Part shown: piece after piece, positions 1,993 through 63,998 of the stretch
Layout of the letters: every line of letters begins with the position of its first letter
Position numbering within the stretch: position 1 is the first letter of the stretch
IMG/VR virus record: IMGVR_UViG_3300020045_014031
Location: 1-64,000 of that record
Reading direction: 5' to 3' (one strand)
DNA length: 64,000 nt
Source: a virus
The notes under the pieces: generated by a model
Database searches by the model: none
What the model was told of the DNA's origin: nothing
What the model saw: the letters and a program-made list of their open reading frames with translations, nothing else
Translations under genes and position numbers: made by a program

Positions 1993-2030
1993 CAATTTAA
2001 AATTTTGGGTAAATGAAAAATCTATTACTT

Positions 2031-5493: not shown

Positions 5494-5497
5494 TATA

Positions 5498-5539: not shown

Positions 5540-5564
5540 GACCTTCTTTAAAAAAAAACTTGAC

Positions 5565-5882: not shown

Positions 5883-5886
5883 AAAT

Positions 5887-6138: not shown

Positions 6139-6158
6139 AAAATATAAACAATAAAACA

Positions 6159-10127: not shown

Positions 10128-10178
10128 CTTTTAAATAAACAAGAACTATAATTCAATATAGTTCTTGTTTTTAATATT

Positions 10179-10535: not shown

Positions 10536-10540
10536 TAATT

Positions 10541-10855: not shown

Positions 10856-10867
10856 ACAATAATAATT

Positions 10868-11095
10868 ATGTGGAATTTAATAAAACAATTTTTAATTAGT
10901 TCAATAGAAGCTAATAAAGAAGTAATAAAACACTGTAAGAAAAATCAAGACTATATTAATTTTATGTTAGAAAGAAAACATACAGATTTACATTATGCAA
11001 TAACAGAAGAAAAACTAAGAGAAGATAATAATTTTACTAAATTAGGTTATTATGTTGTATCAAAACAAAATGTTGAAAAATACATAAAACAATGA
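10868..11095 (+). CDS. hypothetical protein
   Basis: 75-aa ORF overlapping polB start. Confidence 0.65.
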   Translation: MWNLIKQFLISSIEANKEVIKHCKKNQDYINFMLERKHTDLHYAITEEKLREDNNFTKLGYYVVSKQNVEKYIKQ

Positions 11096-14063
11096 AAGTT
11101 GAAGTAGCTGATATAGAAACATTTCCTTCTTTCTTTTGTATATGTTTTATTAACTTTCATACAAAAGAAAGAATATCATTTAGAATAAGTACACATAAAA
11201 ATCAAATTAAAGAATTATATGCTTATTTATTAGAAAACAAAAAAAATAAAGACTACTATTTAATATCTTTTAACGGTAATAGTTATGATTGGATAATAGT
11301 AAATTACTTATTTATTAATTACTATATGTTATCTAAATTAACAGTAATAGATATTAATGAAAGACTTTATTTAATATCACAAAATATAATAAGTAGTCAA
11401 AATACTAACAGTTTTCATTATAGCGAATTTAAAAAATATACTTATAATTTACCTTTTCAATCAATTGACTTAGCTGATTTCTGGGCAAAACTAACAATAA
11501 GAAATAAGAAATTATCTTTAAAGTTTTTTGCTGTAAGTTTAGATTTAGATATTATAGAGTGTCCTATATCATGGACAGAAAAATATTTAACTAAAGAACA
11601 AGAAGATATAGTATTAGAATATTGTTTTAATGATACAGAAGTAACTCATGCTTTAGCTTTAGCTCTAAGAGAACAAATAAATTTTAGATTAAAATTAAAA
11701 CAGCAAAAAGGATATGATTGTTTAAGTTGGTCAGGTGTTAAAATTGGTTTAGAATCACTAATAAAAGATTTAGCTATAACAAATAAAATAGATGAAAAAG
11801 TTATTAGAGATATGAGAACACATAGAAACAGTGTTAGATTATCTGATATTATTTTACCTACAATTAAATTTGAAACTCCTCCGACGGGTAATCATTGGAA
11901 AGTTAAAGCTAAGTCTTCAAAAAAAGGAGAAAATAAGTTTATTGACTGTTTTAACACCTTTTCAGACCTTCTCATTCACTTAAAGACTCTTACAGTCAAA
12001 GACACCAAATCAATTAATTGTCGTGTATTCTTCAAGGATATGATTTATGACATTAAAAGCGGAGGTTTGCATTCTTACCATGATAGCGAATTAAGATTTA
12101 GAGAAGAAGATAAACTTTATATTGATGAAGACGTAAACAAAACACTACTTGCGTCTTAACCCTCTTAACTGCTGGAAACCCTATTAGAAATCTAAGGGCA
12201 ATCAGCATCGAGCCGTACATACGGAACGTTCAGAGACTATCGAAAACACTTGTGCCAACAAGGAAGTGAGTAGAGTACATTTTTTAAATAAAAAATGGAA
12301 ACTGAGGGCAATTTCTTAAAAAAGGATTTTTATTTTGATTTAGGGTAATAACTTCGTACCTTTAGGGTAATAGAACTTAAATCAACAGTTAAATGAATGC
12401 TATTCAATTTAAAGGTATATCAGGTATATACTGTATAAAAAACAAACAAAATAACAAATGTTATATTGGTCAATCAAAAAATATTTATTTACATATAAAA
12501 CAACATATAACAGCATTAAACACTTGTAATAAAAAACAAGAAAATGAAAAGTTAATTGAAGATTGGAAAATATACGGTAAAGAAAATTTTGAATGTTTAT
12601 TATTAGAGGAATTTAGTAAAGAAGATTATAAATACAATACAACAGATATTGAATCTTTGTATATGGATGAGTATGATTCAATTGAAAACGGTTATAACTT
12701 AAGAAAAGATGGTTCATCAGGAATGATAACATATTCTTCAACTTCAATAAAATTAAGTATTGCAAGTAAAAAAAGATTTGAAAATCCTGACGAAAGAGTT
12801 AAACTAACAAATGGATTAGCAAAATATAAAGAAGAAAATCTTGATTGGAAAGAAAAAATGAGTAAAGCCGTATCAAAAGCTAAAATGATTTATAATTTTG
12901 AACAGTATGATAAACAAATGAATTTAATAAAAGTTTGGAATAGTATAGAAGATATTATTAAAGAAAATCCAGAATACAAATGGCAAAATATATATTCTGT
13001 ATGTAATGGTTATAAACCAACAATATACGGTTTTATATGGAAAAAGAAATTGAAGATATAGTCCGACACTCTTAGTAATAAGAGATTAACAGTAAGAAGC
13101 AGCTACTATCCAACTTTAGGAGCAGAACAAAGTTTTGTACCTTATCACTTTATTAAATTAGGTTTAGCAAACATACTAAAAAGAGATAAAACTGATAGAA
13201 TAAAAGATAAAAAAGAAGGAAGAATGTTAGAAGCAGAGTTAAAGAAACTTAAAATGAATGGAGGTTTCTACGGTAATACTAACAATGCTTATAGTTGTAT
13301 GTTTGATTGGTTATGTACATTACAAATAACATTAAACGGTCAATTATTTTTATTAATGAATGTAGAAATGCAAACAAGAAATAAAGGTATTGTAGTTGAT
13401 ATGTGTAACACCGATGGAATAAGTTACTATTTAGATAAAACAGAAAAAGAATATTTTGATAAAACAAATAAAGAATGGGAAAAAATAACTAAAACAGAAT
13501 TAGAATACGTTAATTATGAATTAGTTATTAAATCATCTATTAATGATTATTTAGCTTTTTATTATGATAAAGAAGGTAAAATAAAAATTAAAGAAAAAGG
13601 TTTTTATGTTACAAAACCTTTACTTGATATGAGTAAAGAATTTTTAGTAATACCTAAAGTGATACAAAAGTATTTTTTACATAAGTATTTTAAAAATGAA
13701 GAAATAAATATAGAACAAGAAGTTAAAAAACACTCTAATATTTATGATTTTTGTTCTTCAAGTAAAATTGATAAAGATTATCAAGTAATTTACAATGGTG
13801 AAAAAGTACAACAGTTAAATAGATATTATGTATCTAAAAAAGGTTCTTATCTTTACAAAAAGAAAAAAGAAAAAATAGAGTTAGAATCTGTACTTAAAAA
13901 TACAAAAGTAATTATCCTAAACAATAAAACAGAAGAAATAAACGATGAAAGAAATATTTTTGAAATTGATTATAAATACTACATTAATGCTGTACAAGAA
14001 CACATTAACAAATATAATAATGATGTTAGTATAGATACTAAAGGACAGTTTAACTTATTTTAA
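11092..14063 (+). CDS. polB: family B DNA polymerase, spliced (exons 11092-12134 and 13097-14063, 669 aa)
   Basis: Exonuclease DIET, FNGNSYD, YCFND; splicing restores DEDVSSYYP; KLKMNGGFYG and NTDG motifs in exon 2. Confidence 0.92.
12334..12372 (+). promoter_or_regulatory. putative internal promoter of the intron endonuclease gene with 12-bp direct repeat
   Basis: TTTG-N19-TACCTTTA; TTTAGGGTAATA at 12339 and 12361. Confidence 0.45.
12393..13061 (+). CDS. intron-encoded GIY-YIG homing endonuclease with NUMOD1-like C-terminus
   Basis: SGIYCI...YIGQS; QYDKQMNLIKVWNS...CNG...YGFIWK; stop lies in intron S element. Confidence 0.9.
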   Translation: MNAIQFKGISGIYCIKNKQNNKCYIGQSKNIYLHIKQHITALNTCNKKQENEKLIEDWKIYGKENFECLLLEEFSKEDYKYNTTDIESLYMDEYDSIENGYNLRKDGSSGMITYSSTSIKLSIASKKRFENPDERVKLTNGLAKYKEENLDWKEKMSKAVSKAKMIYNFEQYDKQMNLIKVWNSIEDIIKENPEYKWQNIYSVCNGYKPTIYGFIWKKKLKI

Positions 14064-38923: not shown

Positions 38924-39266
38924 ACTCGTTGAAAGAAACAGAAAGCCATTTACCTAAAGGACAATTTTCATTTATAGCTAATGTTTTACACCATAAGTTA
39001 CAACCACATCCTTTTACTACTTGACCTTTTGTTCTGTTTTGATTACCGTATTTAAAATCTTGTTCTACAATACCTATTTTTAATTGAGAACATATAGATT
39101 TATCTCTAATATCACAATTATCACATATTTTCATTCTTGAATATGCTAATTGTTCTGTTTCTTTTGGTAAATTAATAAATTGAGAAAGAAACAGATTACC
39201 ACACCCTTCTGCTATGTTTTTTAATTGTAAATCTCTTACAAATTCTAAAAACTTAAATAGTATCAT
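38922..39266 (-). CDS. Cys-rich zinc-binding protein (DUF6171-like)
   Basis: RMKICDNC...C...GCGCNL..KT....CPLGKW. Confidence 0.75.
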   Translation of the reverse strand: MILFKFLEFVRDLQLKNIAEGCGNLFLSQFINLPKETEQLAYSRMKICDNCDIRDKSICSQLKIGIVEQDFKYGNQNRTKGQVVKGCGCNLWCKTLAINENCPLGKWLSVSFNE

Positions 39267-41847
39267 AATTAATAGAACAGTTATTACAACATTTTTTACA
39301 ATTACATTTTTCTTTTTTAACTAATAATACATTACTAATATTAGATGTTTCATTATTTAAGTGAGCTATGGTATAGTAAGCATCACTAAAAGGAACTTCA
39401 TTTATAGTAAATAAACCTCTACTATCTACTATAATTCCACTAACTATAATTTCACTATTAGAATTATATAAAGTAATAGAACTTTGAGGTGTTCCTTTAC
39501 CTGTTATTGTATGATTAAAATAATTAATCAATTGAGGAGGTACTAACATACTTATATATTGAGTTATAGTAATATTTTTAGTTAATGTTACATTATACTT
39601 TTCTTCTATGTTTGTAACTACAACTGTTAGTATAGCTAATGAACTATTTGTCAATCTTATAGTTATAACATCTGTATTTAATCCTTGTTCTATAAAACCT
39701 CCTTGAATATCTGTATGAAAAACAAAAGGAGTTGAGCCTTGTAAATTTACAACATGATAAGTTTTTAACATATTTTTTAAAGATACATTATCACCTATTA
39801 TATTACCACCAGATACTCTTATTGGAGAACTTGTTATTGTTATACTTTCACTAAAATCAGATTTTAATTTATTAGGACAAGATTGTTTAGCCGTAATAAC
39901 ATCACCTACTTTTAAATTATAATCTAAAGGTACTGTTAATACATTACTACTTGCATTTCCTGTTTTATAAAAGATTGAATTTATATAAAAATCAACAACA
40001 GCTCCTATACAACAATTAACAGATAGGTATATACTATTTATATCGGTACTATTTAATACAGGAGGTAATGATTTTTCTATAAGTAAAATATTAGATGATA
40101 CAGTATAATCTATTTGTGAACTACAACCATAAACATCAGATATTTCAGTATCAGAAGATACTATTACAAGTATTGTAATATTACTATTTATAGAAGGTAC
40201 TTTATTTGATGGTATTAAACAATTTAATTTATTTTCTACTAATGATTGTGTACCTTGATAAAGTATGTCTAATCCTTTAGTTATTAGTATATTATAAGGT
40301 GGGTTATTTGTAATAGAACTTGAAAAATGAGGTTGAAAACTCAAATTTAAACCTTCACTTACTATTGATTCTACTATGTTTATAATATTAAAAGATTTAC
40401 AATCTTGTTGTTCACTTCCTAACAGTGTTGTTACATTAATATCATTAGAAATTATATCAAAAACAAAAGATGAAGATAATAAACTACAACTTGTAGTTAA
40501 ACTACTTATAAGTACTTTATATCCTGTACCTTCTATAATATTACTAAAATCAAGAACACCTTTTTTTTGATTTGTAACTTCTGTATTTACAGTAGTTAAA
40601 TTACCTGTTTGTAATATTGTATTATCTGAATTAAATAAAGTATATTTTACATTTATATTATCGGGATTTAAAAAAAATACATTAAATAAGTAATTAGTTA
40701 CTGTATCTCTTAATATAGTTATAAAAGATAAATTACAATCTGATGTACTTGAAATTATTATTTCATCACTAAATTCAGAAGTTGATAATTCAACTTGAGT
40801 ACTTCTAACTTTATATACACCTTCAACTAAACTTACAAAAGTATATTCATTATTTGAAGTAGATACACTTTGTAAAAAAACAAAAGAAGTAGAAGGTAAT
40901 ACTTTACCCCATAACTCAACTACTTTATTTTCATCTTGTGAACCAAGAATAACTTTTAAGTCATTTGTATTTACTAAAAGTAATGTAGGTGTTACAGTTT
41001 GTGATTGAGAAACAAAATTAAAACGTATTAAATTACTTTCTACTGATATATTACTATTTATATCTGCAAATTTAGCTACATAACCGTAATTACCTACATT
41101 AGGTGTTACTTCAAGTGTTTCTGTGTTACCTCTTGAAGATAGTAAATTAGTATCTAAATTTTTTTCATACCATAGTATATGTCCTCCAGAAGGTTTACTA
41201 CCTGTATATGTTAATATAGTACTATTACCTAATACAATATCATAAGTACCTCCTCCGTTTTGATGAAGAGTACATACAACTGTAGGAGGTGTTATAGTTA
41301 CACTTCTTGAAGTACCTACTATAAATGAAGTTGATATACTATTAATATAATCTGTTTTACTTAAATAAAAACTAAAAGTACCAGAAATTAAAAATGTAAT
41401 TTGAAAACCACCAGTAATACTTACTATTGTATAATCAATACCTACTTCTGCTGTACTACCGTTTAAAAATACATTTAATGTAGAGCCTGATTCTATATCT
41501 GTTATATTTAATTTTTCACCTATATATAAATCATCAGGTGTTAATACATTATCATTAATAAAAGTAGGTGTATTTAATGTAGGTGCTTGAGATACAGTAA
41601 CAATAGAAGAAAATAAAGAAGTTCCTTCACTTCCTCTTACATAATCAAATTTTAAAGAACCTACTAAACTTGTTAAATTAGAAAAAGTTTTACTTGTTCC
41701 ACTTACTATTTCACTACTATAAAAAATATTATTCAAATATGTCCTTAATGTATCACCCGTTTCTAATCCTGATACAGTAAGTGATTGAGTACTTAACCTT
41801 GAAGTACTACTTACAATAGGAGCTGTTAATGTTCCATCTAATGCCAT
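39253..41847 (-). CDS. virion structural protein with tandem Ig-like domains
   Basis: S/T/V-rich repeats (P.l...S.FS..I), Cys-rich C-terminus. Confidence 0.7.
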   Translation of the reverse strand: MALDGTLTAPIVSSTSRLSTQSLTVSGLETGDTLRTYLNNIFYSSEIVSGTSKTFSNLTSLVGSLKFDYVRGSEGTSLFSSIVTVSQAPTLNTPTFINDNVLTPDDLYIGEKLNITDIESGSTLNVFLNGSTAEVGIDYTIVSITGGFQITFLISGTFSFYLSKTDYINSISTSFIVGTSRSVTITPPTVVCTLHQNGGGTYDIVLGNSTILTYTGSKPSGGHILWYEKNLDTNLLSSRGNTETLEVTPNVGNYGYVAKFADINSNISVESNLIRFNFVSQSQTVTPTLLLVNTNDLKVILGSQDENKVVELWGKVLPSTSFVFLQSVSTSNNEYTFVSLVEGVYKVRSTQVELSTSEFSDEIIISSTSDCNLSFITILRDTVTNYLFNVFFLNPDNINVKYTLFNSDNTILQTGNLTTVNTEVTNQKKGVLDFSNIIEGTGYKVLISSLTTSCSLLSSSFVFDIISNDINVTTLLGSEQQDCKSFNIINIVESIVSEGLNLSFQPHFSSSITNNPPYNILITKGLDILYQGTQSLVENKLNCLIPSNKVPSINSNITILVIVSSDTEISDVYGCSSQIDYTVSSNILLIEKSLPPVLNSTDINSIYLSVNCCIGAVVDFYINSIFYKTGNASSNVLTVPLDYNLKVGDVITAKQSCPNKLKSDFSESITITSSPIRVSGGNIIGDNVSLKNMLKTYHVVNLQGSTPFVFHTDIQGGFIEQGLNTDVITIRLTNSSLAILTVVVTNIEEKYNVTLTKNITITQYISMLVPPQLINYFNHTITGKGTPQSSITLYNSNSEIIVSGIIVDSRGLFTINEVPFSDAYYTIAHLNNETSNISNVLLVKKEKCNCKKCCNNCSINYDTI

Positions 41848-50102: not shown

Positions 50103-53100
50103 TTAGTTTAAATCATCAACAAAGTGTTCAGACTGATACTTAAATTGAGAAGCTATATTTAAAACTGGAACAAGTTTACCTAATTTATATAAATACTTAT
50201 CAAAATCATAATCATCATCAGAAATAATTTTTACAGTTGCAGGAATTAAGGATTGTAAATTAGTAACAACACTATAAGCAGGAATTAAATTTCCTGCTAC
50301 AATCTCAGAAACAGTAGAAGGTGATATAACTGTTAAATCTCTTTCTATCAATAATGATTGATTAACTATAAAAGTTAATAAAGCATCATCTTCTTCATCA
50401 TCAGCTAAGTATCTTAATATATAACCTAATGTCATAAATGACATGATTAAACTTAATTCAATTGTATTTTTTACAAGATTATTAGCATCTGTTTCTGTTA
50501 TTTTTCTACCCTTATTATTTTTTAAATGTACATAATCTTTACTACCAAATATCCATGATTTATAAACTTGTAGAGTACCTACTAAAAAACCAGTAAAACC
50601 TAAATCAGAATAAGTTAAATATCTCCCTTTTATTGTTCTGTTTAATTTATAATCATAATGTTCTTTTTCTAATCTTGATGCAAATGCTTCTGGCATCCAT
50701 GATACTTTAAATTGACCTATTAATCTACCTACAAAAGATTTATTAATTAACTTAAATGAATGAGTATCGCCCATTACAATATCGTTAATTCTTTGAATTT
50801 TTAATATTATATTATTAATTACATCTTGTTCAATAATATTGTTTCCTTGTTTTTCTCCAATCCAATTCCCATCATTATCAAATTTAGTATATAAATCTTC
50901 TTTTTCAAGAATAGAAATCATTAAAGCATATCTAATAGCTTGTTCTGATTTTTCCATTAATTTAAACCCGTAATTATCAAACCATGTTTTCTCATCTAAA
51001 CCCTGTAAATCTATAACATTGTCTTGAACTAATAATTTTTGAGCAAGTTTAAATACTTTAAAAGCTTCTTGTTTATCTTTTACTATATTTGAAATCATCA
51101 ACGATGTTACTTTACCCACATTTTTAGTAAATACAACAGAATCGTATTCTTGACCTGCATTAACAATACCATTAAAATAACCCCCAACAAAATTTCTACC
51201 TGCTGAAAAAGGATTTAACCCTAAAGATATAGTTCTTCTAACTTTAATTAAGTAATCAGTTATTTTACTAAAGTAAATACTACTTCTATTTAACTCTCTA
51301 ATTCTTTTTTGTATTAAATCATTAGTTTGTATAAACTCTTCTTTTGTTATTTTACCTTCTCGTCTTAATTGCCTTGATGTATCTAATTTCTCCAAGTAAT
51401 AATTATATAACGTTTCAGCACTATCATAATTTTCACCTCTATACTTCTTTGTAAATTGATTTTTTATAGAATTTAATTTAGAAAAAACACCTTTACTTAA
51501 TGAATCATTTATATTTTTCTGAACATTATTTACTAATTCAATTTCATCATTAAGTTCTTTTTCTGTAAAAGGAGAGTATATTTTTTTATTTTTTAATGCT
51601 TTTTTATTTTCATTTATAATTGCTAAAACACCTGATAAATCGGTTACATCATAATTAGAAAAAATATTTATCTCTGGTTTTGTCTTTTCTAAAAACATTA
51701 CGTGATTAATAGTTTCTTCTAATAAAGTTAATTCATTAGACAAACCTTGACCTTTATCAAATTTCTTATCTGTTCCTTTACCTCTTTCTATAACAATATT
51801 TCCTTTATAGTCTTTCTGTATTGGTGTAGCATTCTTTAAAATACTTTGACCTAATAATACAGGTGCTTTAATTTGAGTATAGTAATAGTAATGATAAACA
51901 GAATCACCAAACAATTTTAATACAGGAATTAAATTAGTTGAAAAATCACCTTTATCTTTTGTAAAATTAGCTGAGTTTTTATGTTCTCCTATTTCTGGAA
52001 TAAAATTAATAGGTATTTCTTTATAATCATTTATATTATCTGATGCTGTAAAATTAGGTAATGTTAATAAATCTTTTACTTGTTCTTGAAAAGATAAACC
52101 TTCTTTTACTAAATAACTATCTACAACAGGTATAAAATCTTCTGATATTCTGTTTCTTATATTAGCAGGTAACTTACTTTTTAAATTATCAATTACTTTA
52201 GATAAATTGTTATATACTTCTAATTTTTTATTATCTTTAAATATATTTTCAAAATCAATATTCCAAAATTGTTTTAATACAGGTAGTGATACAACATATT
52301 TTCTTGATGATAAATAATTAGGTTTATCTTTATTTAAGTTTTCAATATATAAAAAAGGATTGTTAATATTATTCCACTTATTAAAATCTTCTTCTGAACT
52401 AATTTCTTTTCTTGTCTTAACATCTTCAAAATACTTATTTAATAAACTTAACTGTTGATTTATTTTTTCTTGAATTACATATTTTACTAATTCTTTATTT
52501 TCAACACTAATCTTATCAGATAAACTTTTTATTTCTAATTCTAAATTATCTTTATTTATTTCATAACCTTCTGGTGTTTCTATAAATAAATTTTTTAGAT
52601 TTAAAACAGTACCTTGAACTTTATGGTTTAAAGATTGGTCTTTCCATACTTCTTTAGATGTAGCTAAATCATTAGCTCTATTTTTTCTCAATAATAAAAC
52701 TCTTTCGTTTTCCATCCAAGAAGAAGTAAAGGCTTTAATTAATCTTATATCAGGTTCTTTTCCTTCTTTATTAACAGTTAAAAAATCTTTTGTATCAATT
52801 TTATTTTCTTTAACTATTTTCTCAATATCAATAAGAATATCTTGTAAACTATTAGATTCTCTTTTTTTAGATACATAAGCTAAATCTAAAAATTTATTAA
52901 TAGCTTGTACTGCAATATTAGCTGTTCTACCAGAACCAAGTAAAAAAGAACTTACAACATTTCTATCTGAAATATCTGTTGTTAAATTTTCTTTTTTAAT
53001 TTCTTCACCTATATTACTTTCTTTAATAAAAGATTGTATTTCTATATCTTTAAATTTTTTACTTAAAGAATCAAATTTAGATTGTATTAGCAGTAAATCA

Positions 53101-53747
53101 TCAGAATCTCTAATATCATCACCTACTAAATCTTTTATTCTTAACCAAAAATCCATTAAAAAAGAAAGTGATTTGATTTCATCAACACTTGTAGTTTTAA
53201 AATTATAATTACTTACAATATTATTAAAGTAATTATAATGTTTATTTGCTACAATCATTAAATTTACTAATGGATTATTAATATTACCTAAAGAATTAAT
53301 ATCACTTGCTAAATCATCTAATCTAAGTTGTCTTGATTTATTAAATAAACTACTATCTTTCTCTTGAAATATGTTATTTCTAATTATATTTAACTCAGAT
53401 ATTACTTTATTTAAAGGTTGTGTATTAACAATACTTGGAGCAAAAAAAGTATTACTATCTTCAATATCTTGAAGTATATTTACAAACTCATTATAAGAAG
53501 GTTCTTCTTTTGATTTAAGCCTTTTAAAAAATAAGGAAGAATATAGTTTAGATTTTATTCTTATAGCTTCATTTTCAGAATTTGTACTTTGAAGTATCTC
53601 TTGATATAGTTTACTATCATTCCCTTGGAAATCTTTATCAATAAAGTTTCCGTTATTTCTTGCAAAAACAAGATGTGCAAGCTCTTCTCCAAGAACTTGC
53701 ACTGTTTGTTTATAAAATTCGTTATTTTTATTTGGACAAATATTCAT
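50103..53747 (-). CDS. giant virion ejection protein (phi14:2 gp65-like position)
   Basis: 1214 aa helical, LGLNPFSA..N...G, GRLIGQFK.W, GRY.T, C-terminal hydrophobic helices. Confidence 0.75.
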   Translation of the reverse strand: MNICPNKNNEFYKQTVQVLGEELAHLVFARNNGNFIDKDFQGNDSKLYQEILQSTNSENEAIRIKSKLYSSLFFKRLKSKEEPSYNEFVNILQDIEDSNTFFAPSIVNTQPLNKVISELNIIRNNIFQEKDSSLFNKSRQLRLDDLASDINSLGNINNPLVNLMIVANKHYNYFNNIVSNYNFKTTSVDEIKSLSFLMDFWLRIKDLVGDDIRDSDDLLLIQSKFDSLSKKFKDIEIQSFIKESNIGEEIKKENLTTDISDRNVVSSFLLGSGRTANIAVQAINKFLDLAYVSKKRESNSLQDILIDIEKIVKENKIDTKDFLTVNKEGKEPDIRLIKAFTSSWMENERVLLLRKNRANDLATSKEVWKDQSLNHKVQGTVLNLKNLFIETPEGYEINKDNLELEIKSLSDKISVENKELVKYVIQEKINQQLSLLNKYFEDVKTRKEISSEEDFNKWNNINNPFLYIENLNKDKPNYLSSRKYVVSLPVLKQFWNIDFENIFKDNKKLEVYNNLSKVIDNLKSKLPANIRNRISEDFIPVVDSYLVKEGLSFQEQVKDLLTLPNFTASDNINDYKEIPINFIPEIGEHKNSANFTKDKGDFSTNLIPVLKLFGDSVYHYYYYTQIKAPVLLGQSILKNATPIQKDYKGNIVIERGKGTDKKFDKGQGLSNELTLLEETINHVMFLEKTKPEINIFSNYDVTDLSGVLAIINENKKALKNKKIYSPFTEKELNDEIELVNNVQKNINDSLSKGVFSKLNSIKNQFTKKYRGENYDSAETLYNYYLEKLDTSRQLRREGKITKEEFIQTNDLIQKRIRELNRSSIYFSKITDYLIKVRRTISLGLNPFSAGRNFVGGYFNGIVNAGQEYDSVVFTKNVGKVTSLMISNIVKDKQEAFKVFKLAQKLLVQDNVIDLQGLDEKTWFDNYGFKLMEKSEQAIRYALMISILEKEDLYTKFDNDGNWIGEKQGNNIIEQDVINNIILKIQRINDIVMGDTHSFKLINKSFVGRLIGQFKVSWMPEAFASRLEKEHYDYKLNRTIKGRYLTYSDLGFTGFLVGTLQVYKSWIFGSKDYVHLKNNKGRKITETDANNLVKNTIELSLIMSFMTLGYILRYLADDEEDDALLTFIVNQSLLIERDLTVISPSTVSEIVAGNLIPAYSVVTNLQSLIPATVKIISDDDYDFDKYLYKLGKLVPVLNIASQFKYQSEHFVDDLN

Positions 53748-53748
53748 T

Positions 53749-56700
53749 TTATTTACATTTTTTAACTAACTCTCTTGCTTCTTGCATATCTTCATTACTA
53801 AATATACTTTCTGATTGACTTAATTCTAAACTTAAATTATTTTCCTCAATATCTTGCATTAACTCTATTATGTTTTGAATAGAACTTCTTAATATAGAGT
53901 TATTATTAATAGGAATTGATAAGTTATTAGCTATTTCATTTATTAACTTATTTAACCATTCAACAAATTTATCAAGTAAATTAACTTCTGTATCTAAAAA
54001 TTCTATATTATTAAGTTTTCTTTGAAAATTTACATCTGTTAAAACACCAGTAACAAATTCTCTAATATCACTCAAGTAATATAAAGATACTAATTCTTTT
54101 TTACTTAAAGTAGAATTTTGTTCTATTTCTATATATTTATTTTTTCTTTCGGTTAAATCTTTAATTTTATGAGCTTTACTATATTCTTCAACAATACTTA
54201 ACTCACTTTCTAATAAAGATTCTTTTGCTGAATTAACTAATAATTTTAGTTTTACATAAGGTAAAGAACCTTTATTTTGATTTAGATAATTTAAAGTAAC
54301 ATGATGTACTGATTCATGTAATAAATTTCTTAATAATTTAGAATTGTTATAAGCTAATTGTATTTCTGAACCATTGTAATAACTCATTCCATTTTCATTT
54401 TCTACAATAGGTATATCAGCATTTTTATCATATATAAATTGATAAAGTATATTACTTAAATCTTTAAAAGGAGTGTCGTATTTTTCAATATTATGTAATG
54501 TACTTATTAAAGATTCTTTTCTTATACTATCAATTATAATTTTATTATTTTCTAAATTTTTTATTTGTTCTTGTTTTTCTTGTTTTTGACTGATTGAATC
54601 ATTGCTTTCAAATAAAAGTAAATCTTCAATATGTAAACCTTTTTGTGTTTTATTAATAGGTATTAATGAGTTATTAAAATCATTATTATAATTGTATTCA
54701 TTAATATAATAATTACCTAAAGTATCTATTTGTAATAACTTAACATAAAAAGTTTTATCTTGGTTTTCTCTTGATTCAATTACTTCATATAAAAATGTTT
54801 TATTTACTTTATATTCTTTACCTGTTTTTTCATTCTTAACACTAACTTTACCTTTTTTATACATAAACCTTGATAATTTATCAACTTGTAACTCAATTAT
54901 AGGTTTATCAAATTTTATATTTTTAGGTATTGGTTGACCTTCTTCTGGATTATGCTGATAATACTGTCTTACAAAATAATCATCATTTAAAGAAGGTTCG
55001 TTAATTGTATTCTTTAAAAATTCACTAAAGTTATTAATAATAATAGAAGGAGGTATTAATTGAATAAATGAATTATAATTATTTATACCACCATTAACAT
55101 AAGCGTATCTTACTAAATCACTTACAAAATTTCTTATTTCTAAATTTTCTGATTCTAACAAAATATAAAACTCATTATATATTACTTGTGAATCAGCTTC
55201 TAAATCTAATGTTCTATAAACAATATAATCAGGCTCTCCTTTTTTATCTGCTATTTTTGTTTCTAACTTATTAAATAATGTGTAATTTTTATATTTTAAT
55301 TTTAAATGTTGTAATCTTAAAGCTAAACTTTCATTATCACCTAATGTAAACATTAATCTTCTTCTTTCTTTACTATTATTTTCCCAAATATTATTAGCTG
55401 AATAAACATAAGACTGATAATTTGTAAGAATATCTCTAAGTTCTTTAGGGTTTAATTCTTTATCTTTTATTGATGTTATTTGATTAATTATATTATTTAA
55501 CTTGCTGTAATTAAACATTTCAGAAAAACTATTTAAAACATCTAATGTTAAATCAACTGTCTTACCTAATTCTGTTTGACCTATTGATTCTTCGTAAAAT
55601 AATTCTCTAAAGTTATTCACATAAGGAAATCCTTTTGAAGTATCAATAACAGATAAAGAGTTAATTTTTTGTTCTTTTGCAATACCTTCTAATATATTTG
55701 TACCAAAACCTTTAGTATCAACATTAGTAGCAATCATCATTTGAAATAAATTAGTACCTATATAATCAAGAACTAAAAAAGATTTTAATAAATTATAGTT
55801 ATTTTCTGGTTCTTTTAATTCTTTAATATTACCATTATTATCTCTAACAATACCTAAGTCACTGTCTGTTAAATATACATTTTCTTTTAGTACATCATAA
55901 ATACTACTCGGTATTTCATATATTTTTTTTGAAACATTAGATTCTGAACCAAAACGTAAATCAAAATCCTCTAATGTTTTTTCATAAGCTAATTGTTTAA
56001 CATCTTTTCCTTTTGCATCATTAAAAGTATCTCTGTATGATTTTAAGTTATTAACATAACTTTTTACAATATCGTTATTAATCAATTGAGCAGAATATTC
56101 ATTACTTACAGCATTATTATCACTTTTACTGCTATCTTTTAATTGTAATAATACAACATAAGCATTAGCTGTAATATCATTAAGATTAATTTTATCTGCT
56201 GTTTGATTTTTTGCATGGTCTACTGCTTCTGATTGTGGTATTACTATATTATCAGATGTTGTTCTTCTTTGTCCATTAAAATAACTATAACCAATACCAG
56301 AAAAAGTATTTAGATTTGTATTATTTATGTTTATCCTAACATTTCCTAAATTCATATTTTTAGTTCTTTGTAATAAAGTACTAAACGTTAAATTTAATGA
56401 AAAAGTACCAACTAATCTTTTAACACCAATATTACTTACATAACTTTCTAATTGATTAACAGGATTAAACAAATCTTTTATTTGTTTATTTTTGTTTGAT
56501 TTATTTCTCATTGATACTACATCTTGTAAATCTGACATATCAAGAGGTTGCATAATTTTATCAAACATTCTTGGTGCAATTAATATATTATAAAGAGTAT
56601 CAAAATAATCATTTTTTAACTCTTCAATTCCTTCTTCATATTCTTCGTTTATCTCTCCAAATTTATTAACATTTAGATTAGTATCAAGATAATTTATAGG

Positions 56701-59700
56701 TAATTCATTTAACTGTTGTTTATAGTTTTCTAACAATTCCCTGTCTTCTTTTAGTAGCTTTACAACTTTAGAAAAAGTATTTTTCTTATTGACATCTTCT
56801 ATATATGAAACAGTAAAAGCATTATAAACTTGTTTTTTAAACTCACTATCTATATTTTTAATTTTATTATATATAGTTCTTGTTTCACCTTTATATTTTG
56901 ATTTAACTGATTCTGCTCCTATACCTGTTGTATATGTTAAATCTCTAAGGTTAGTTAAATCATCAATATTAAAAGATTCAATAATTTTTTCTAAATTTTC
57001 AGAATCCAAATCACTTTCAATAAAATAAGAAATAACTTTTTCTTTTAAATTCTTTAAGTATTTGTCAGAAGTAATTGCTTGATAATATTTTTCTATTTGT
57101 TCATTTACTTTTTTAAACTCTTCTTCTGATAATTTATTATCTTGAAGTTCTTTTTCTTGATTTTTTATTTTTTGTTTTAATAATATATAATCATTTTTTA
57201 ATTGTAAATCAGGATATTTTTTTACTGGTTTATACTTTTTTTTGTAAACATAAAGTTTATCAATATCAAAGTCACTACCCATTTGTTTTGTAATCTCAGC
57301 AGGTACATATATTATATCACCTCCTATATTAGGTAAAAACCCTACAATTTCCATAGGTAACTGTGAACTATGTGATTGGTTAGGTATCCTTGCTCCTACA
57401 AACTTTAATAGTTCTTTATTTATATCAACACTTCCTTCATTTATAAACTGATTTATATCAATTCTTTGTTCTTTATTAAAGAAGTTAAAAGGAACTAATA
57501 CTTGTGCAGGAAGTATTTTTGCTGTAAAATTATCTGAGCCTTCTAAAATAATAGAAGAATTAACTAACTGTTGGATTTGCTCATTATTTATTTTAAAAGG
57601 CTCATTTGTTTTAGATAAATCTAACTGTTCTTGTGTTAAATATATCTCTATTCCAAATTGGTCATATAACTCAGATATTACAGGTCTTAATGGTCTTAAT
57701 CTTTTATCATCCCAACCTTTAACTTTTTTAACATCATTAGGTACTTCACCTGTTTTATCCATTTTACCAATACCTAAACTTGTAATTTGAACAAATGACT
57801 TACCGTTAATTTTAACTTGAATAGCTTTTCTAACAGCAGAAGCTATTTTTGATTGTATCTGATTAGAACTTCTATTAAATAATAAAGGAATTAACATTTC
57901 ATTATTATCATCTAATTGCAACTCTAATTTTTGATTAGTTGTTAAATCAGAAGTTGTTCTAAATATATAATCTCTTAATTTTGTTTTATCAACAAAATCT
58001 TCATAAATACCTAACTCATCTTTTAATTCATCAAAAGATATATCTAACATTCTTTTACGAATATCTTCTTTAATTAAGCACATTTCCTCACCTGTTTTCT
58101 TTTCTCCTTTATATTCAAATACAGGTTCTTTAATTGAAGTTAATGTATCAAGAATTAATTTATTTAATTGAGTTACAAAAGTAATTTTTTCTTTTGTTTC
58201 ATCATAAGGTATTTCTTGCTGTATTAAAAAAGCATCAGCATTCATTACTCTCATTGATTTAACTAATGAATCACCTTCATTTTTATAAATCCAATTACCG
58301 TTAATATCAAAAGGTTCAAAAAATACTACTGGATTACCTGATTTACCTGCTGTATCTAAACTAACTTGGTCAATACCGTTTTCTTCTATTAGTTTTCTTA
58401 AATTATCTAATTCAGTACCAGAAGTTATATTAGGTATTAAAGGAATTAAAGATGATTTTACATAATGAATATAACTATATACCCTATTAACACCTAATGG
58501 AGTAAACTTTCTATCTGTTTCCACAGGTTTCATAGCATACATATAAGATAGTTCTTCTGCATTTAAAAATTCACCATCTTTCTTTTTCATTATTTGACTA
58601 TAAACTCTTGTAGGTATTCTACCGTAATCAAATAGTATATTAGCTATTCTTTTAACAGAACAAAATTGAGAAGCATCCGAAGGGTCAATTTGTCCTTCTA
58701 ACTCTCCTTTCTTGTTTTGCTTTAATCCGTAGTAATTATTTAAAAATAAATCTTTATACTCTTCTGTAAATGTATTAGGTACTTTAATTGTTATTGCTTT
58801 ATAAGTTAAACTTTGATAACTACCTGCAATCCCAGGGGCTATATCTTTAGCTAATCTTTTAGTATATTCATCATAAGTTCTATTTATAGTATCTACTATT
58901 GTATCACCTTCTTTACCTTTATAAAATAAAGCAGGGTCACCAGATGTAAACATAGCTAACGATATATTAAAAATATGTTTATTAATAGCATACTGAGATA
59001 TACTACTAATATCTTCTTTTGATATTAATTCAATAGGTAATTTATTTTTTTGAATAGAATCAAAAACATTATTAATTATAATATCACTTCTATAACTAAT
59101 TACTTTATTTATTACATCAAGATACTTTTCTATTATGTTATCGTTCTCATCAAGAATTTTATCATTAATTGTATCTTTGTCTATCCATAATAAATCTATT
59201 TCTTCTTTAGAAAATAAATTACTACCGTCTATTGACTTAATATTACTTAAAATCTCATAATTAAAATCAGGTAACAAGTAAAATATTCCTGCTCCCTTTT
59301 TAACTTGTGCTGTTACATCTAATTTATCTTTATTAACTACTCTAATATATTCGGCTTTAAATATATAAGCATATTCATTACCCATTTGACTAAAAGGTAT
59401 TTTAGGTATTCCCGAATGAAAAGGAGTTGTTTTCTTGTCAGATTTAGTTAAATCAAAATAATTAGCTGTACTTTTACCTTCATTTCTAAAGTTTTCAATT
59501 TCAGTAACTAACTGTTCTCTAAAACTCATATTATCTCTTGTAATACCTTTTTTAGATTTTTCATTCTTAATAGCTTCAAATAAACCTAACTTATACTCTT
59601 CTAAAACATTGTTATTGTTAATTACATTTCTAAAAAAGAAAGAGTTACTACTAAATAAATCTTTACTTAATGTATCCCTATAGTTTTCACCATTAATAAT

Positions 59701-61401
59701 AGGGTTTTGAATAGCTCTTAATATCTCTCTAAATTGAAAAGTAGGTAAAATATAATCATATACTTTCTTACCTTCTACTGTTGTATGAGTAGATGTAATA
59801 ATATCTGAATATTTACCTTGTAACTCACCTAAAAATCTTGCTACTTTAGTATCAGTATATAATGGATTACTAATAGTTAAAGTTGCTTCAACTTCTTCAT
59901 CTTCATTTTCATATATACTTTCTCCTCTTAAAATACTTACAATATCTGAAAATAAACCAAATGGTTCAAAATCAGTTGTAGAACCTTTTTTAAGTTTTCT
60001 CGTATATTGAAATTGAGAAATAATATCTTTATTGTATCTTGATTTCTTAAAGAAAAAACTATTATTAAATAAATCTTCTCTTGTTTGTTCTGATATTGTA
60101 AAACCTAAACCATCAATAATTTCATTAGCTAAATCAATATACTCTTGTTTAACAGCTTTTTCTTTATTAGCTTTTAATATTCTATTATATATATTATTTA
60201 CTTTTTCTTTGTTTACAAAATAATTACCGTCATTATCAAAACTAATAAAATTATCTTTTCTATCTAAAGTATTTAGTTTTTGCTCTTCTTTCCAAATAGA
60301 AAGAATTTTATTAAGATAAGAATTTCTATTTCCTTCAATAGTTACAACTTTATAAGGAGTATTTAAACCTTCTTTTTCAGCTTTATAATCTTCTGTTTTA
60401 TTAAATAAGGTAACGTATTGTTTAGCGTTTACTTTCTTTAATGCTGATACAAATTCATTTTTAATTCTATCTTCTGAATTAATTAATCTTTCACCTAATT
60501 TATAAATAGTAGGTTGATTTTTTTTATTAAAGTCAGATTGTAATATAGTTAATAATTCATCAAAAGATAAATCTAATTTATTACTTGTGATAGTTACAAC
60601 TTTTTGATAAAGCTCATCGTAGTTATATAACTTACTTAATCCAATAGAACTTATTTGAGGAACAATATTTCCATTAACATTATCATATATAGGAAGAGTT
60701 GAAAGAAACAATTTAATTCTTTTTGACATTGTTTCTTTAGGGTCACGTTCTTCACTTGCTTTATGTTCTCCTCTTACATCTGCTTCCCCTGTTTCATTGT
60801 CTTCTAACAATGATTCATTAATTCTATCAACATCAATATTTAATTTTGAATATTTATCTTTAACAAAACTTTCAATCTGTTTTCTTGAATTAATTATGTT
60901 CTCATAATCTTTTATAAAAGGTATAAAAGAATAAAATTTACTTTCTGTATTATCTTCTAAAAAAGCTTTTAAAGTATTTTTATGTATAATACTTATATTC
61001 TTAAATACAATATCAAATACATCTTCTACTTTTAATTCTTTATTATCTTCTTTTGATTTTTTAATTAGTTCTTCAAAAGACATTTTAAAAACAACTTCAA
61101 TAGAATCTTTTTGTTTTACAATATCAAAAAATTCACCTGTATAGTTACCATTTGAATCTTGTATTTCAATATTATACAATCTTCTTTCTTCATTGTTATT
61201 TGATGTAACAATAGATTTATTAATTACTTGCTCTATTGTATATCTTTTTCTTTTAAATTGTTTTATCTTTTCACTAACAGAAATAGCTCCTTCATTAGAA
61301 GGAGCTATATTTTCTGCAAACCATACTTGTTGTGCATTTTCACCATGTTCAGCAACTAATTGTCTCCAATAATCACTGTTATAATTTGGACATATTTTCA
61401 T
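53749..61401 (-). CDS. virion RNA polymerase (crAss-like two-barrel RNAP) with C-terminal zincin-like domain
   Basis: RIPNQSHSSQLPMEIVGFLP...VPAEITKQMGSDFDIDKL catalytic motif; LLHESVHHVT...EFVTG. Confidence 0.92.
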   Translation of the reverse strand: MKICPNYNSDYWRQLVAEHGENAQQVWFAENIAPSNEGAISVSEKIKQFKRKRYTIEQVINKSIVTSNNNEERRLYNIEIQDSNGNYTGEFFDIVKQKDSIEVVFKMSFEELIKKSKEDNKELKVEDVFDIVFKNISIIHKNTLKAFLEDNTESKFYSFIPFIKDYENIINSRKQIESFVKDKYSKLNIDVDRINESLLEDNETGEADVRGEHKASEERDPKETMSKRIKLFLSTLPIYDNVNGNIVPQISSIGLSKLYNYDELYQKVVTITSNKLDLSFDELLTILQSDFNKKNQPTIYKLGERLINSEDRIKNEFVSALKKVNAKQYVTLFNKTEDYKAEKEGLNTPYKVVTIEGNRNSYLNKILSIWKEEQKLNTLDRKDNFISFDNDGNYFVNKEKVNNIYNRILKANKEKAVKQEYIDLANEIIDGLGFTISEQTREDLFNNSFFFKKSRYNKDIISQFQYTRKLKKGSTTDFEPFGLFSDIVSILRGESIYENEDEEVEATLTISNPLYTDTKVARFLGELQGKYSDIITSTHTTVEGKKVYDYILPTFQFREILRAIQNPIINGENYRDTLSKDLFSSNSFFFRNVINNNNVLEEYKLGLFEAIKNEKSKKGITRDNMSFREQLVTEIENFRNEGKSTANYFDLTKSDKKTTPFHSGIPKIPFSQMGNEYAYIFKAEYIRVVNKDKLDVTAQVKKGAGIFYLLPDFNYEILSNIKSIDGSNLFSKEEIDLLWIDKDTINDKILDENDNIIEKYLDVINKVISYRSDIIINNVFDSIQKNKLPIELISKEDISSISQYAINKHIFNISLAMFTSGDPALFYKGKEGDTIVDTINRTYDEYTKRLAKDIAPGIAGSYQSLTYKAITIKVPNTFTEEYKDLFLNNYYGLKQNKKGELEGQIDPSDASQFCSVKRIANILFDYGRIPTRVYSQIMKKKDGEFLNAEELSYMYAMKPVETDRKFTPLGVNRVYSYIHYVKSSLIPLIPNITSGTELDNLRKLIEENGIDQVSLDTAGKSGNPVVFFEPFDINGNWIYKNEGDSLVKSMRVMNADAFLIQQEIPYDETKEKITFVTQLNKLILDTLTSIKEPVFEYKGEKKTGEEMCLIKEDIRKRMLDISFDELKDELGIYEDFVDKTKLRDYIFRTTSDLTTNQKLELQLDDNNEMLIPLLFNRSSNQIQSKIASAVRKAIQVKINGKSFVQITSLGIGKMDKTGEVPNDVKKVKGWDDKRLRPLRPVISELYDQFGIEIYLTQEQLDLSKTNEPFKINNEQIQQLVNSSIILEGSDNFTAKILPAQVLVPFNFFNKEQRIDINQFINEGSVDINKELLKFVGARIPNQSHSSQLPMEIVGFLPNIGGDIIYVPAEITKQMGSDFDIDKLYVYKKKYKPVKKYPDLQLKNDYILLKQKIKNQEKELQDNKLSEEEFKKVNEQIEKYYQAITSDKYLKNLKEKVISYFIESDLDSENLEKIIESFNIDDLTNLRDLTYTTGIGAESVKSKYKGETRTIYNKIKNIDSEFKKQVYNAFTVSYIEDVNKKNTFSKVVKLLKEDRELLENYKQQLNELPINYLDTNLNVNKFGEINEEYEEGIEELKNDYFDTLYNILIAPRMFDKIMQPLDMSDLQDVVSMRNKSNKNKQIKDLFNPVNQLESYVSNIGVKRLVGTFSLNLTFSTLLQRTKNMNLGNVRININNTNLNTFSGIGYSYFNGQRRTTSDNIVIPQSEAVDHAKNQTADKINLNDITANAYVVLLQLKDSSKSDNNAVSNEYSAQLINNDIVKSYVNNLKSYRDTFNDAKGKDVKQLAYEKTLEDFDLRFGSESNVSKKIYEIPSSIYDVLKENVYLTDSDLGIVRDNNGNIKELKEPENNYNLLKSFLVLDYIGTNLFQMMIATNVDTKGFGTNILEGIAKEQKINSLSVIDTSKGFPYVNNFRELFYEESIGQTELGKTVDLTLDVLNSFSEMFNYSKLNNIINQITSIKDKELNPKELRDILTNYQSYVYSANNIWENNSKERRRLMFTLGDNESLALRLQHLKLKYKNYTLFNKLETKIADKKGEPDYIVYRTLDLEADSQVIYNEFYILLESENLEIRNFVSDLVRYAYVNGGINNYNSFIQLIPPSIIINNFSEFLKNTINEPSLNDDYFVRQYYQHNPEEGQPIPKNIKFDKPIIELQVDKLSRFMYKKGKVSVKNEKTGKEYKVNKTFLYEVIESRENQDKTFYVKLLQIDTLGNYYINEYNYNNDFNNSLIPINKTQKGLHIEDLLLFESNDSISQKQEKQEQIKNLENNKIIIDSIRKESLISTLHNIEKYDTPFKDLSNILYQFIYDKNADIPIVENENGMSYYNGSEIQLAYNNSKLLRNLLHESVHHVTLNYLNQNKGSLPYVKLKLLVNSAKESLLESELSIVEEYSKAHKIKDLTERKNKYIEIEQNSTLSKKELVSLYYLSDIREFVTGVLTDVNFQRKLNNIEFLDTEVNLLDKFVEWLNKLINEIANNLSIPINNNSILRSSIQNIIELMQDIEENNLSLELSQSESIFSNEDMQEARELVKKCK

Positions 61402-63998
61402 TATTCTGTACAGATTTTATTAAATAATTTATTTGCATCTTCCATAGATTGTACTTTAGATGCTTCTTCTAAATATTTGTTTTTAGAATTTTCTGATAAT
61501 TCATCATTCAATATAACATTTATATTTATAAATTCATAAACAAAGTTCTTATACTTTTCAACAGAATTTTTAAATGATTCTAAAAAAGAAGAATTGTTTT
61601 TGTAATCATCATTAATTGAAAATACAGAATCTAAAACATCTTCGTCTTCTTCATTAGATTTCTCACCTATATTTTTAGAAGGCTCATTTGTTTGTTCAAT
61701 AACTTTATAATTATAATCAAAATTAACCACAAAATCTTTAGTATAAACCAATTCTTTTTGTCCTTTGTTATTTATTATAAAATTATCTTTATTTACATCA
61801 AAATTAGTTTCTAAATCATTCTTAATATAATCATAATAAGTAAGGTTATTTCCTCCTTTAATTACAATTTCGTTATTTTCTAATACAGGATATTTAAAAC
61901 CTTTTGTTTGACCATTATTTAAAAAATCATTATCAAGAGTAAATAGTTTATTCAATAATTCTGTTTCTAAATTATCTATAAATTTTTTAAACCCTTGTTT
62001 ATCTAAATTATAAGAACTATTACTATTAGCAGGTTTTAAAGCAAATAAATTAACTCCTTTTTTACCGTTAGCATCTGACATATAAATTAAAGAAGGTAAT
62101 TTATTTTCTCTTCTTGTTTTTATATCGTTAATATAATTTACTGTTGTAAAATACTGTTGAATAAATTTATTAAAATTAGTTAATATATCATAGTTTAATA
62201 CTAAATCATTAGATATTTTATTTAATTTATCTAATGATATTTTATCTCCTTCAACAGTACCTTTATAGTATAAAGTAAATAATTCTTTTAAAGTATTTAT
62301 TTTATCTTTACTAAGTGTTTTAATTGTTAAAGGATATACTTTAGTTAAACCATTAATATCAGGATAACTTAAAACAGCAAGTAGTTTTTTATTTATTGTA
62401 CCATTTATTTCACTTTCAATTGAAGGGTATAAAGTACCATTAACCAATGAATGAACTTTAACTCTACTATCATTATTATCTATAATACCTTCTAAAGATT
62501 GTCTTGTTTTTTGAGTAATTGCTCTACCACCTGATTTTCTTTTAAGATTGGTTTTAATAACTACATTAGAATTAGTAGAAAACAGTTCTCTTATTTTTTT
62601 AATTTTTTGTTCGTTATAATTTCTATAATTAATAGAAATTATAACACCTTCTTGTGTTACAATACTTTCTTTATCTAATTTTAAATAACTTATTTGATTT
62701 AATACATCAAATAATTCATTTAGTATTTTTTGATTTTTACCTTCTGTATTATAATCTTTAATGTTGTTTTTACTATCTTTAATGTACGTAGTATTAATAA
62801 ATTCAATAGTTGGTAAATAACCAATTTTTTTGTCTGAGCCTTCTAAAAATATAGCTATCGGAAGCTCATCATTAATTCCTACTTGATAGTTTTTATCAAT
62901 TCTTAATTCTAATGAAGTACCCTTTTTTAACTTAGCTGTTTCTAAAGCATCTGCTGTTAAAGAATTATCATCTCTTATTTGACCATATTGAAATCTAAAC
63001 ATATCTAAAGTAAAAGGTTCTTCATACATTTCTTCTTCTTTTACTTCATTGTTAAAATTATCAATAATTTCTTCTGTTGTTTGTTCTTGTGTTTCTTCAA
63101 TAAAAGAGGGTTCTTCATTAATAGTTTTAGAAATAACAAGTTCCTCAACTTTATCTTTAACTTCTTCTTGATTTTGTTTAGCTAAAGTTATAGCATAACT
63201 TTCTTCAATTTTATTTTTAAATTCTGTAAAAGACTTTCTTAGTTCTTTTTTTATTTTTTTACTATCAAACATTAAATCTAATACTTCATCTGAAAAAGAA
63301 AATAATCTTAATTGTAATTTATATTTTTCTTCACCTGATAACTCTTTTATATTTTTATGAATATAGTCTAATAAAGTACTTGATAGATATTCTAAATTGT
63401 AATCACCAGAATCAAGAGAAGACTTAATAAAATTAAATACAAATGTTAAAATTCTATCATTTTTGTTTTCTTTAGAACCAAATGTACTTTTTATCTTATT
63501 TTCTAATTCTTGTATTTTTTTAGAAATAACTTTTTTCTTTTGTTCTCCTTTAGTAATTATTTCTTTTTTCCTTAATGTTTGTTTTTTAACAGGTTTTTTA
63601 ACAATAGGTTGTTCTATTAATTCTTTTAATAAATCATCATATTTAGCATTAATTTTTATAACAACAGGTTTTTTATTAAATTCATCAACTGTTTCATTTC
63701 CAGTAATTTCACTATCTAATTCTTCTTGTCTTCTTTTTTCTATATCAGCTTTTTTATCTTCTAAACTATTATTATTTTTAGTTTGTTCTGAAACAACAAC
63801 AGGTTTTTCTGATTCTTTGCTCTCTTCTGCTTCTTTCTCTTCTTTATTAATTTTACGTATTTCTTCAAGTAACTTATTATTAAAATCATTATCACTTTCT
63901 TTACCTTCTCCTTGTGGAATTTCAGACTCTTCTTGACCAAATGTTCTTAATACTTTAGGTTCTAAATCATCAGGAACTTCTATTTTTTCAACTTCTTT
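61401..63998 (-). CDS. giant virion ejection protein, 5'-truncated by window
   Basis: frame stays open from 63272 to window end; contains KKADIEKRRQEEL...INAKYD motif typical of crAss-like giant proteins. Confidence 0.8.
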   Translation of the reverse strand, partial: KEVEKIEVPDDLEPKVLRTFGQEESEIPQGEGKESDNDFNNKLLEEIRKINKEEKEAEESKESEKPVVVSEQTKNNNSLEDKKADIEKRRQEELDSEITGNETVDEFNKKPVVIKINAKYDDLLKELIEQPIVKKPVKKQTLRKKEIITKGEQKKKVISKKIQELENKIKSTFGSKENKNDRILTFVFNFIKSSLDSGDYNLEYLSSTLLDYIHKNIKELSGEEKYKLQLRLFSFSDEVLDLMFDSKKIKKELRKSFTEFKNKIEESYAITLAKQNQEEVKDKVEELVISKTINEEPSFIEETQEQTTEEIIDNFNNEVKEEEMYEEPFTLDMFRFQYGQIRDDNSLTADALETAKLKKGTSLELRIDKNYQVGINDELPIAIFLEGSDKKIGYLPTIEFINTTYIKDSKNNIKDYNTEGKNQKILNELFDVLNQISYLKLDKESIVTQEGVIISINYRNYNEQKIKKIRELFSTNSNVVIKTNLKRKSGGRAITQKTRQSLEGIIDNNDSRVKVHSLVNGTLYPSIESEINGTINKKLLAVLSYPDINGLTKVYPLTIKTLSKDKINTLKELFTLYYKGTVEGDKISLDKLNKISNDLVLNYDILTNFNKFIQQYFTTVNYINDIKTRRENKLPSLIYMSDANGKKGVNLFALKPANSNSSYNLDKQGFKKFIDNLETELLNKLFTLDNDFLNNGQTKGFKYPVLENNEIVIKGGNNLTYYDYIKNDLETNFDVNKDNFIINNKGQKELVYTKDFVVNFDYNYKVIEQTNEPSKNIGEKSNEEDEDVLDSVFSINDDYKNNSSFLESFKNSVEKYKNFVYEFININVILNDELSENSKNKYLEEASKVQSMEDANKLFNKICTE

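Follow-up and report, generated by a model that had tools for sequence, protein, structure and literature searches.

The 64,000-nucleotide stretch of DNA analysed here (positions 1 to 64,000 of the IMG/VR virus record IMGVR_UViG_3300020045_014031, hereafter the window) carries in its right-hand 14 kb three consecutive minus-strand genes, denoted U, R and D, which, judged by the homologies of their translated products, constitute the virion cargo module of a crAss-like phage that is both divergent and very AT-rich. The three giant proteins are almost devoid of cysteine, and most of the few cysteines that they do contain lie at the termini by which neighbouring proteins face one another; the same pattern recurs in related phages where these genes are separate, and is missing at the former junctions where they are fused. 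We propose, with a probability of about 0.65, that the three proteins are linked in a head-to-tail chain, the links probably being disulfides, and that these links replace the peptide bond of the fused forms. The proposal draws on the distribution of the cysteines and on an analogy with the ejection proteins of the cyanopodophage A4.

Cysteines at the facing ends of U, R and D

U is a cargo protein resembling gp67 of phage phi14:2. The window contains the 3′ part of its gene (61401..63998, minus strand), which is open at the 5′ end; in the full genome, a single contig of 97,183 bp, the gene extends to position 66881 (61401-66881, minus strand) and encodes 1826 residues. The sole cysteine of U is residue 1824 (codon 61410..61412, minus strand), two residues before the C-terminus (...NKICTE), within a C-terminal end that reads ...MEDANKLFNKICTE. 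R (53749..61401, minus strand; 2550 residues), a virion-type RNA polymerase (RNAP), begins MKICPNYN and finishes ...ARELVKKCK; it has exactly four cysteines, at positions 4 (codon 61390..61392, minus strand), 914, 1108 and 2549 (codon 53755..53757, minus strand), the last of these being the next-to-last residue of the protein (...VKKCK). D (50103..53747, minus strand; 1214 residues) begins MNICPNKN, with its sole cysteine at position 4 (codon 53736..53738, minus strand), and its C-terminus is without cysteine. The genes abut or overlap, with the letters TAATG at the U/R junction. Together the three proteins contain six cysteines in 5590 residues, four of which are among the four outermost residues at an end facing another of the proteins. 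Since the open reading frames (ORFs) of the window have a mean cysteine content of 0.92%, a chance origin of this terminal pattern is excluded.

Much of this had been set out in a preliminary description of the window, and the translations bear it out: the genes upstream of R and of D each end with a near-terminal cysteine, the last protein has none at its C-terminus, Cys4 is the only cysteine of D, and the RNAP, for which about four had been given, has precisely that number. The cysteine of KICTE is indeed the only one in U, although the 623 residues quoted for that protein are the part after an internal ATG and not the full chain. R and D also start alike, as had been claimed; their first 31 residues (R, 61309..61401; D, 53655..53747; both minus strand), hereafter the CPN module, are 42% identical (13/31; pairwise E 6e-8), and the hidden Markov model (HMM) of the module finds the N-terminus of R with an E of 3e-16. 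The C-terminal tails of U and R share only an acidic stretch followed by K-x-C, and otherwise have no significant similarity.

An AlphaFold2 (AF2) model of D, made with 62 sequences (predicted local distance difference test (pLDDT) 68.9; predicted template modelling score (pTM) 0.73), has Cys4 within a coil tail that precedes two short helices (residues 10-19 and 21-30); residues 37-155 are mostly below a pLDDT of 50, and are followed by a large, mostly helical body. The model proves nothing on partners, and is compatible with Cys4 being an exposed and mobile thiol.

R is homologous to the RNAPs of phi14:2 and FpV4 (tblastn), with approximately 26% identity to phi14:2 gp66 over the core, and matches PDB 6VR4 with an E of 1e-19. 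Its DFDID catalytic motif lies at residues 1377-1381 (57259..57273, minus strand), and a zincin-type HESVH motif at residues 2362-2366 (54304..54318, minus strand) of the C-terminal domain, 188 residues before the end of the protein. D belongs to the family of phi14:2 gp65 and crAss001 gp49 and aligns with 23-62 relatives; when its C-terminal 600 residues were searched as a profile, 7658 cluster representatives were recovered at E <= 1e-3. An IMG/VR scan with R as a single protein returned no close relative, PHROGs gave no match for U, R, D or the next gene, and Pfam gave only sub-threshold noise, on U. The cargo proteins of phi14:2 and crAss001 are present in the particle and are delivered into the host (gp66 preprint; crAss001 structure paper) and, by homology, the same most likely holds for the products of U, R and D.

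Conservation of the terminal cysteines in related phages

The cysteine pattern was followed in a sample of 80 IMG/VR loci with a DFDID region, which were found with a four-sequence alignment around DFDID, a six-sequence RNAP alignment being too divergent for scanning. Where the genes are separate, a C-terminal cysteine faces a cysteine at position 3-5 of the next protein. At the junction from R to D both cysteines were present in 57 cases, neither in 2, and only one in a single case. At the junction from U to R both were present in 18 cases, and in 2 more the cysteine was set back from the end by 11 or 14 residues. Neither was present at a further 12 of the U to R junctions, where the upstream gene is short (436-664 residues) and Cys-free, and where R nearly always exceeds 4,100 residues, consistent with its holding a fused U part. 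The co-occurrence of the terminal cysteines, on which the preliminary description had staked the idea of a chain in advance, was not refuted, with pairs standing at 75-77 of about 80 split junctions.

Among 61 non-redundant loci, internal cysteines account for 0.038% of 320,348 residues, compared with 1.19% in the flanking ORFs. In the same set 41 of 43 D proteins have an N-terminal cysteine and none has a C-terminal one, and U never has an N-terminal cysteine. Independent gene calls were provided by the top 150 of the 7658 cluster representatives of the D family, in which stand-alone D proteins have a cysteine within the first nine residues in 75/79 cases, 46 of them without any other cysteine. 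Cys4 is invariant in the 62 aligned relatives of D, being one of nine such columns at a mean identity of 20%, and in the junction alignments cysteine is the only invariant column; the conservation across Crassvirales that had been proposed as a check is evident, in that the terminal pairs are kept at approximately 20% sequence identity. Among 157 distinct N-termini the cysteine occupies position 3-5 in 136, and of 70 C-terminal cysteines 55 stand 0-2 residues short of the end. Lysine or arginine occupies positions -3 to -1 and +1 of the C-terminal cysteine at frequencies of 29-41%, against a background of 12.8%, and such basic surroundings would fit a reactive thiol.

The cultured and reference phages follow the same rule. 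In phi14:2 the sole cysteine of gp67 (1797 residues) is its last residue, gp66 has cysteines only at positions 3 and 2179 of 2180, and gp65 only at position 3. FpV4 encodes a U+R fusion of 4287 residues with its sole cysteine at 4286, and the next protein begins MAC. In crAss001 the sole cysteine of gp47 is residue 2339 of 2341, gp50 has cysteines at 5 and 2404 of 2412 together with one internal, and the sole cysteine of gp49 is at position 5; cr1_1, ProJPt-Bp1, cr3_1, Carjivirus (the crAssphage genus) and cr126_1 also conform. The modules of phi14:2 and crAss001 resemble that of the window in their homologous DFDID RNAP, their gp65/gp49-like D, the zincin domain and the giant, Cys-poor proteins with terminal cysteines. 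The gene order of phi14:2 is that of the window, whereas gp47 of crAss001 is encoded on the opposite strand, away from gp50, and keeps its C-terminal cysteine nonetheless. Gene order is, then, not required, and on this point the earlier suggestion of a chain that matches it needs correcting. In Carjivirus, a protein of 1304 residues encoded upstream of the RNAP module (L087:1213-5127) has its sole cysteine at position 1303, and the next protein, of 857 residues, is Cys-free.

The cysteines might instead be a by-product, either of a nucleic-acid signal at the junctions, such as one for coupled translation, or of composition in proteins that are simply Cys-poor, and the abutting or overlapping genes (including the TAATG at U/R) and the very AT-rich genome would suit such an origin. 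However, the cysteine of gp47 is retained by a gene on the other strand and far from gp50, gaps of approximately 480-500 nt occur at junctions which keep both cysteines (L010, L020, L022, L025 and L036), and the cysteine codon of the upstream gene lies anywhere from 0 to 14 codons before the stop. The cysteine content of the flanking ORFs, and the recurrence of the rule in A4 and in phages whose composition is quite different, also argue against composition as the source. The by-product reading is already contradicted by these observations, and we consider it highly improbable.

Two further candidates were rejected. A split intein or another form of trans-splicing was set aside because no Pfam or PHROG domain was found at the termini, because the cysteines stand at positions 3-5 after the methionine and not at a splice junction, and because the tails are short. 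A lipobox reading was rejected as well.

Gene fusions, splits and moving break points

In ten loci the proteins occur as R+D or U+R+D fusions, recognised by the D HMM, which matches the C-terminal part of the polyproteins with E values of 1e-105 to 1e-239. The former junction is without cysteine in these fusions, and most of them are Cys-free throughout. Similarly, among the 51 proteins of at least 3000 residues in the top 150 representatives, 31 contain zero cysteines (the longest having 6334 residues) and none has a C-terminal cysteine; a further nine, all of R+D size, have a sole cysteine at the N-terminus, the one that would face U. Fusion of U to R removes exactly the C-terminal cysteine of U and the N-terminal cysteine of R, and fusion of R to D removes exactly the C-terminal cysteine of R and the N-terminal cysteine of D. 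The single-polyprotein versions found in many related crAss-like phages carry these domains in an unchanged linear order within one chain of 4,000-6,300 residues, most of them Cys-free, and have a peptide bond where the window has a pair of facing cysteines between separate genes.

Splitting and fusion have occurred repeatedly. A FastTree phylogeny of the RNAP core shows no fewer than 6 changes between the split and fused states for R|D, and no fewer than 12 for U|R. When pairs that are independent on the tree are compared, the cysteines follow the split in approximately 6 of 9 cases for U|R and approximately 4 of 4 for R|D (approximately 10 of 13 together), and there are 0 cases in the opposite direction.

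The position of the break can also shift, and the cysteines shift with it. R finishes with the zincin domain in the window and in loci L012, L014, L019, L020 and L025, the R/D break of the window falling after that domain; in phi14:2 the break falls before this domain, which forms residues 78-387 of gp65 (HMM E 2e-7), and a cysteine pair is found at both break points. A BLASTP comparison of the C-terminal end of R from the window with the N-terminal part of phi14:2 gp65 gave no link, and the two were connected by the HMM. In L046 (L046:10558-16272; also L048) D has 1904 residues, with approximately 570 extra N-terminal residues that carry their own Cys4; the CPN-like module, now internal (residues 571-606), is without cysteine and the new N-terminus has one.

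The preliminary description had proposed the CPN domain as the dock for the preceding C-terminal helix. The N-terminal modules are, however, of several types (CPN, MACxY, C-x-IIP and others) that swap between R and D across phages, and for this reason CPN is not a general docking unit. No code that pairs C-terminal tail type with N-terminal module type could be read apart from phylogeny, because the types follow clades.

These comparisons bear on the question of whether the terminal cysteines pair head to tail at all. They might be directed at another partner (the portal, the capsid interior or other cargo), might form U-U or D-D homodimers or, as Cys4 and Cys2549 of R, might bond to each other and make that protein circular. 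R does have both ends available and the modules at the two junctions of the window are alike; moreover, the cargo-like 1304-residue protein of Carjivirus combines a lone C-terminal cysteine with a Cys-free neighbour, and sequence data cannot assign pairings. Against such arrangements, it is the two facing cysteines, and no others, that each fusion removes, and full fusions keep none, even though fused proteins would still need anchoring to other parts of the particle. Nor would these arrangements account for D never having a C-terminal cysteine, or for U never having an N-terminal one. We consider them unlikely and take the facing ends of U, R and D, on the strength of the sequence comparisons, to be partners.

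Two observations on individual loci may be added. In L047 (L047:4104-12979) the RNAP frame is broken into two parts (4104-8237 and 9563-12979), separated by a 255-residue ORF and without cysteine at the break; the arrangement may reflect an inserted element or an effect of assembly or recoding. The ORF directly after an R+D fusion, of 252-262 residues, has a Cys-rich end in L006 (L006:16896-17654; ...KNCKPCATC), L007 (L007:17114-17893; ...TSSPTCTTC) and L010 (L010:15408-16196; ...SKPSGCGCS).

Precedent, proposed chain and wider gene context

Precedent for a bond between such termini comes from the pre-ejectosome of cyanopodophage A4 (Anabaena phage A-4L), in which cryo-electron microscopy revealed a disulfide between Cys1715 of gp27 and Cys5 of gp26 (PNAS 2025, PMC12002296; PDB 9K2V and 9K3A), with the C-terminal helix of gp27 docked in a cleft of gp26 (PMC12002296). 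The A4 genome record gives these as the sole cysteines of gp27 (1717 residues) and of gp26 (1114 residues), and Pf-WMP3, Pf-WMP4 and Arthronema virus TR020 (L090-L092) keep the lone pair (C-terminal -1 or -2; position 5) at approximately 25% identity; the annotations of the A4-type genes in these three phages read 'ParB-like nuclease' and 'tail fiber protein'. As in the window, the A4 proteins are adjacent giant ejection proteins with a cysteine near the C-terminus of the upstream member and another near position 5 of the downstream one. A4 differs in having one link rather than the two proposed for the window, has no RNA polymerase in the chain, and has no series of splits and fusions described for it; the bond is presented by its discoverers as locally stabilising a pentameric ring rather than as replacing a peptide bond (PMC12002296). 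The sole solved case with the terminal-cysteine signature is a disulfide accompanied by docking.

Other phages with internal proteins offer a looser comparison. N4 (gp50, its virion RNAP, with gp51 and gp52) and T7 (gp14, gp15 and gp16) also pass internal proteins through a podovirus tail before or with the DNA, and those of N4 include a giant RNAP. The T7 and N4 ejection proteins differ from the proteins of the window in assembling non-covalently, as far as described, and in having no homology to them; a recent paper on N4 ejection makes no mention of cysteine or disulfide.

The facing ends might equally be held together in some other way, by a shared metal ion or by non-covalent docking in which the cysteines serve as contact residues. 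The co-occurrence and co-loss of the cysteines require only that the ends be partners, assembly takes place in a reducing cytoplasm, and a zincin domain adjoins one of the junctions, all of which would be in keeping with such a contact. One cysteine per end would nevertheless make a poor metal site, the more so as no conserved histidine, cysteine or aspartate partner lies near either cysteine and the junction alignments are invariant only at cysteine itself. The disulfide of A4 tells against both the metal and the non-covalent form, and we regard this explanation as improbable, slightly more so than the pairings other than head to tail considered above.

We therefore return to the disulfide chain. 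The facing ends of U and R, and of R and D, would first dock non-covalently, after which, within the particle, the two thiols at each junction would become joined by an intermolecular disulfide; the product, U-S-S-R-S-S-D, would be a thread of approximately 5,600 residues. The disulfide would take the place of the absent peptide bond, would hold U, R and D at a ratio of 1:1:1, and would allow packing and passage through the tail as one string, whereupon the reducing cytoplasm of the host could open the link. For crassviruses we infer the bond, the docking, the ordered ejection and the reductive release. The chain first suggested for the window keeps its core, in that the cysteine pairs are conserved, co-occur, are absent from fusions, track a shifted break and have a precedent in A4; the roles that it gave to CPN and to gene order need correcting.

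The crAss001 structure paper and the gp66 preprint consider polyprotein fusion and possible cleavage, neither mentions terminal cysteines or a covalent link, and in a search of the available literature no account of such a rule in crassviruses came to light. The virions of crAss001 do contain disulfides, in the tail (crAss001 structure paper).

Several points weigh against the disulfide chain. Particles assemble in a reducing cytoplasm, so that the thiols would need to be oxidised either through their proximity or after lysis. Both junctions of the window share one type of N-terminal module, which leaves the specificity of pairing unexplained and makes R-to-R polymers, R circles or a direct link between U and D conceivable. 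A4 is an analogue and not a relative, since no similarity in sequence or fold was detected: D and A4 gp26 show no homology by phmmer, the profile search against PDB gave no match to 9K2V or 9K3A, hhalign gave a probability of 0.2%, and Foldseek with two AF2 models (pLDDT 62.9 and 68.9) found no match. The support from phylogenetic contrasts is real but thin, the contrasts being few and the sign tests on independent pairs giving p 0.03 for U|R and p 0.125 for R|D. Some cases break the rule (L034, L080 and 4 of the 79 stand-alone D representatives). Finally, gp66 was purified alone and was crystallised and assayed in dithiothreitol (gp66 preprint), and the published work on it could therefore not have seen the bond.

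A broader reading is that crassviruses and, independently, the A4 family use terminal disulfides as redox-cleavable substitutes for peptide bonds, interchangeable with them in evolution, such that split cargo is rejoined post-translationally into a single thread several thousand residues long, is packed and drawn out via the tail in fixed order and then falls apart in the host cytoplasm into active enzymes, with the nearly complete ban on internal cysteines keeping the thread free of knots. We see the arguments for and against this generalisation as evenly balanced.

Turning to the neighbouring genes, those upstream of U (G000:C1:66878-71310, beyond the right end of the window) encode proteins of 592 and 861 residues with zero cysteines, which are probably smaller cargo proteins like gp46 and gp45 of crAss001; the gene after this pair encodes 1236 residues with 9 cysteines. 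Within the window, the minus-strand structural block starts with an 864-residue protein (39253-41847, minus strand) that has 14 cysteines and a Cys-rich C-terminus, ...CKKCCNNCSINYDTI. The window also contains one tRNA-Ile gene with the anticodon TAT (1920-1993, plus strand).

The proposed chain addresses an open question of crassvirus biology, namely how cargo of approximately 5 MDa is stored in these phages and how so large an RNAP is delivered through a narrow tail, including the order in which the proteins leave; that order is probably set by packing and by interactions between the proteins (crAss001 structure paper). A covalent head-to-tail tether, if true, would explain equal stoichiometry, co-packaging from a single signal and ordered ejection, as well as the freedom with which these genes have split and fused in evolution, and the disulfide chain would be the functional equivalent of the single-polyprotein versions. 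The lone, facing terminal cysteines would also provide a simple sequence signature by which tethered ejection proteins may be recognised in other phages.

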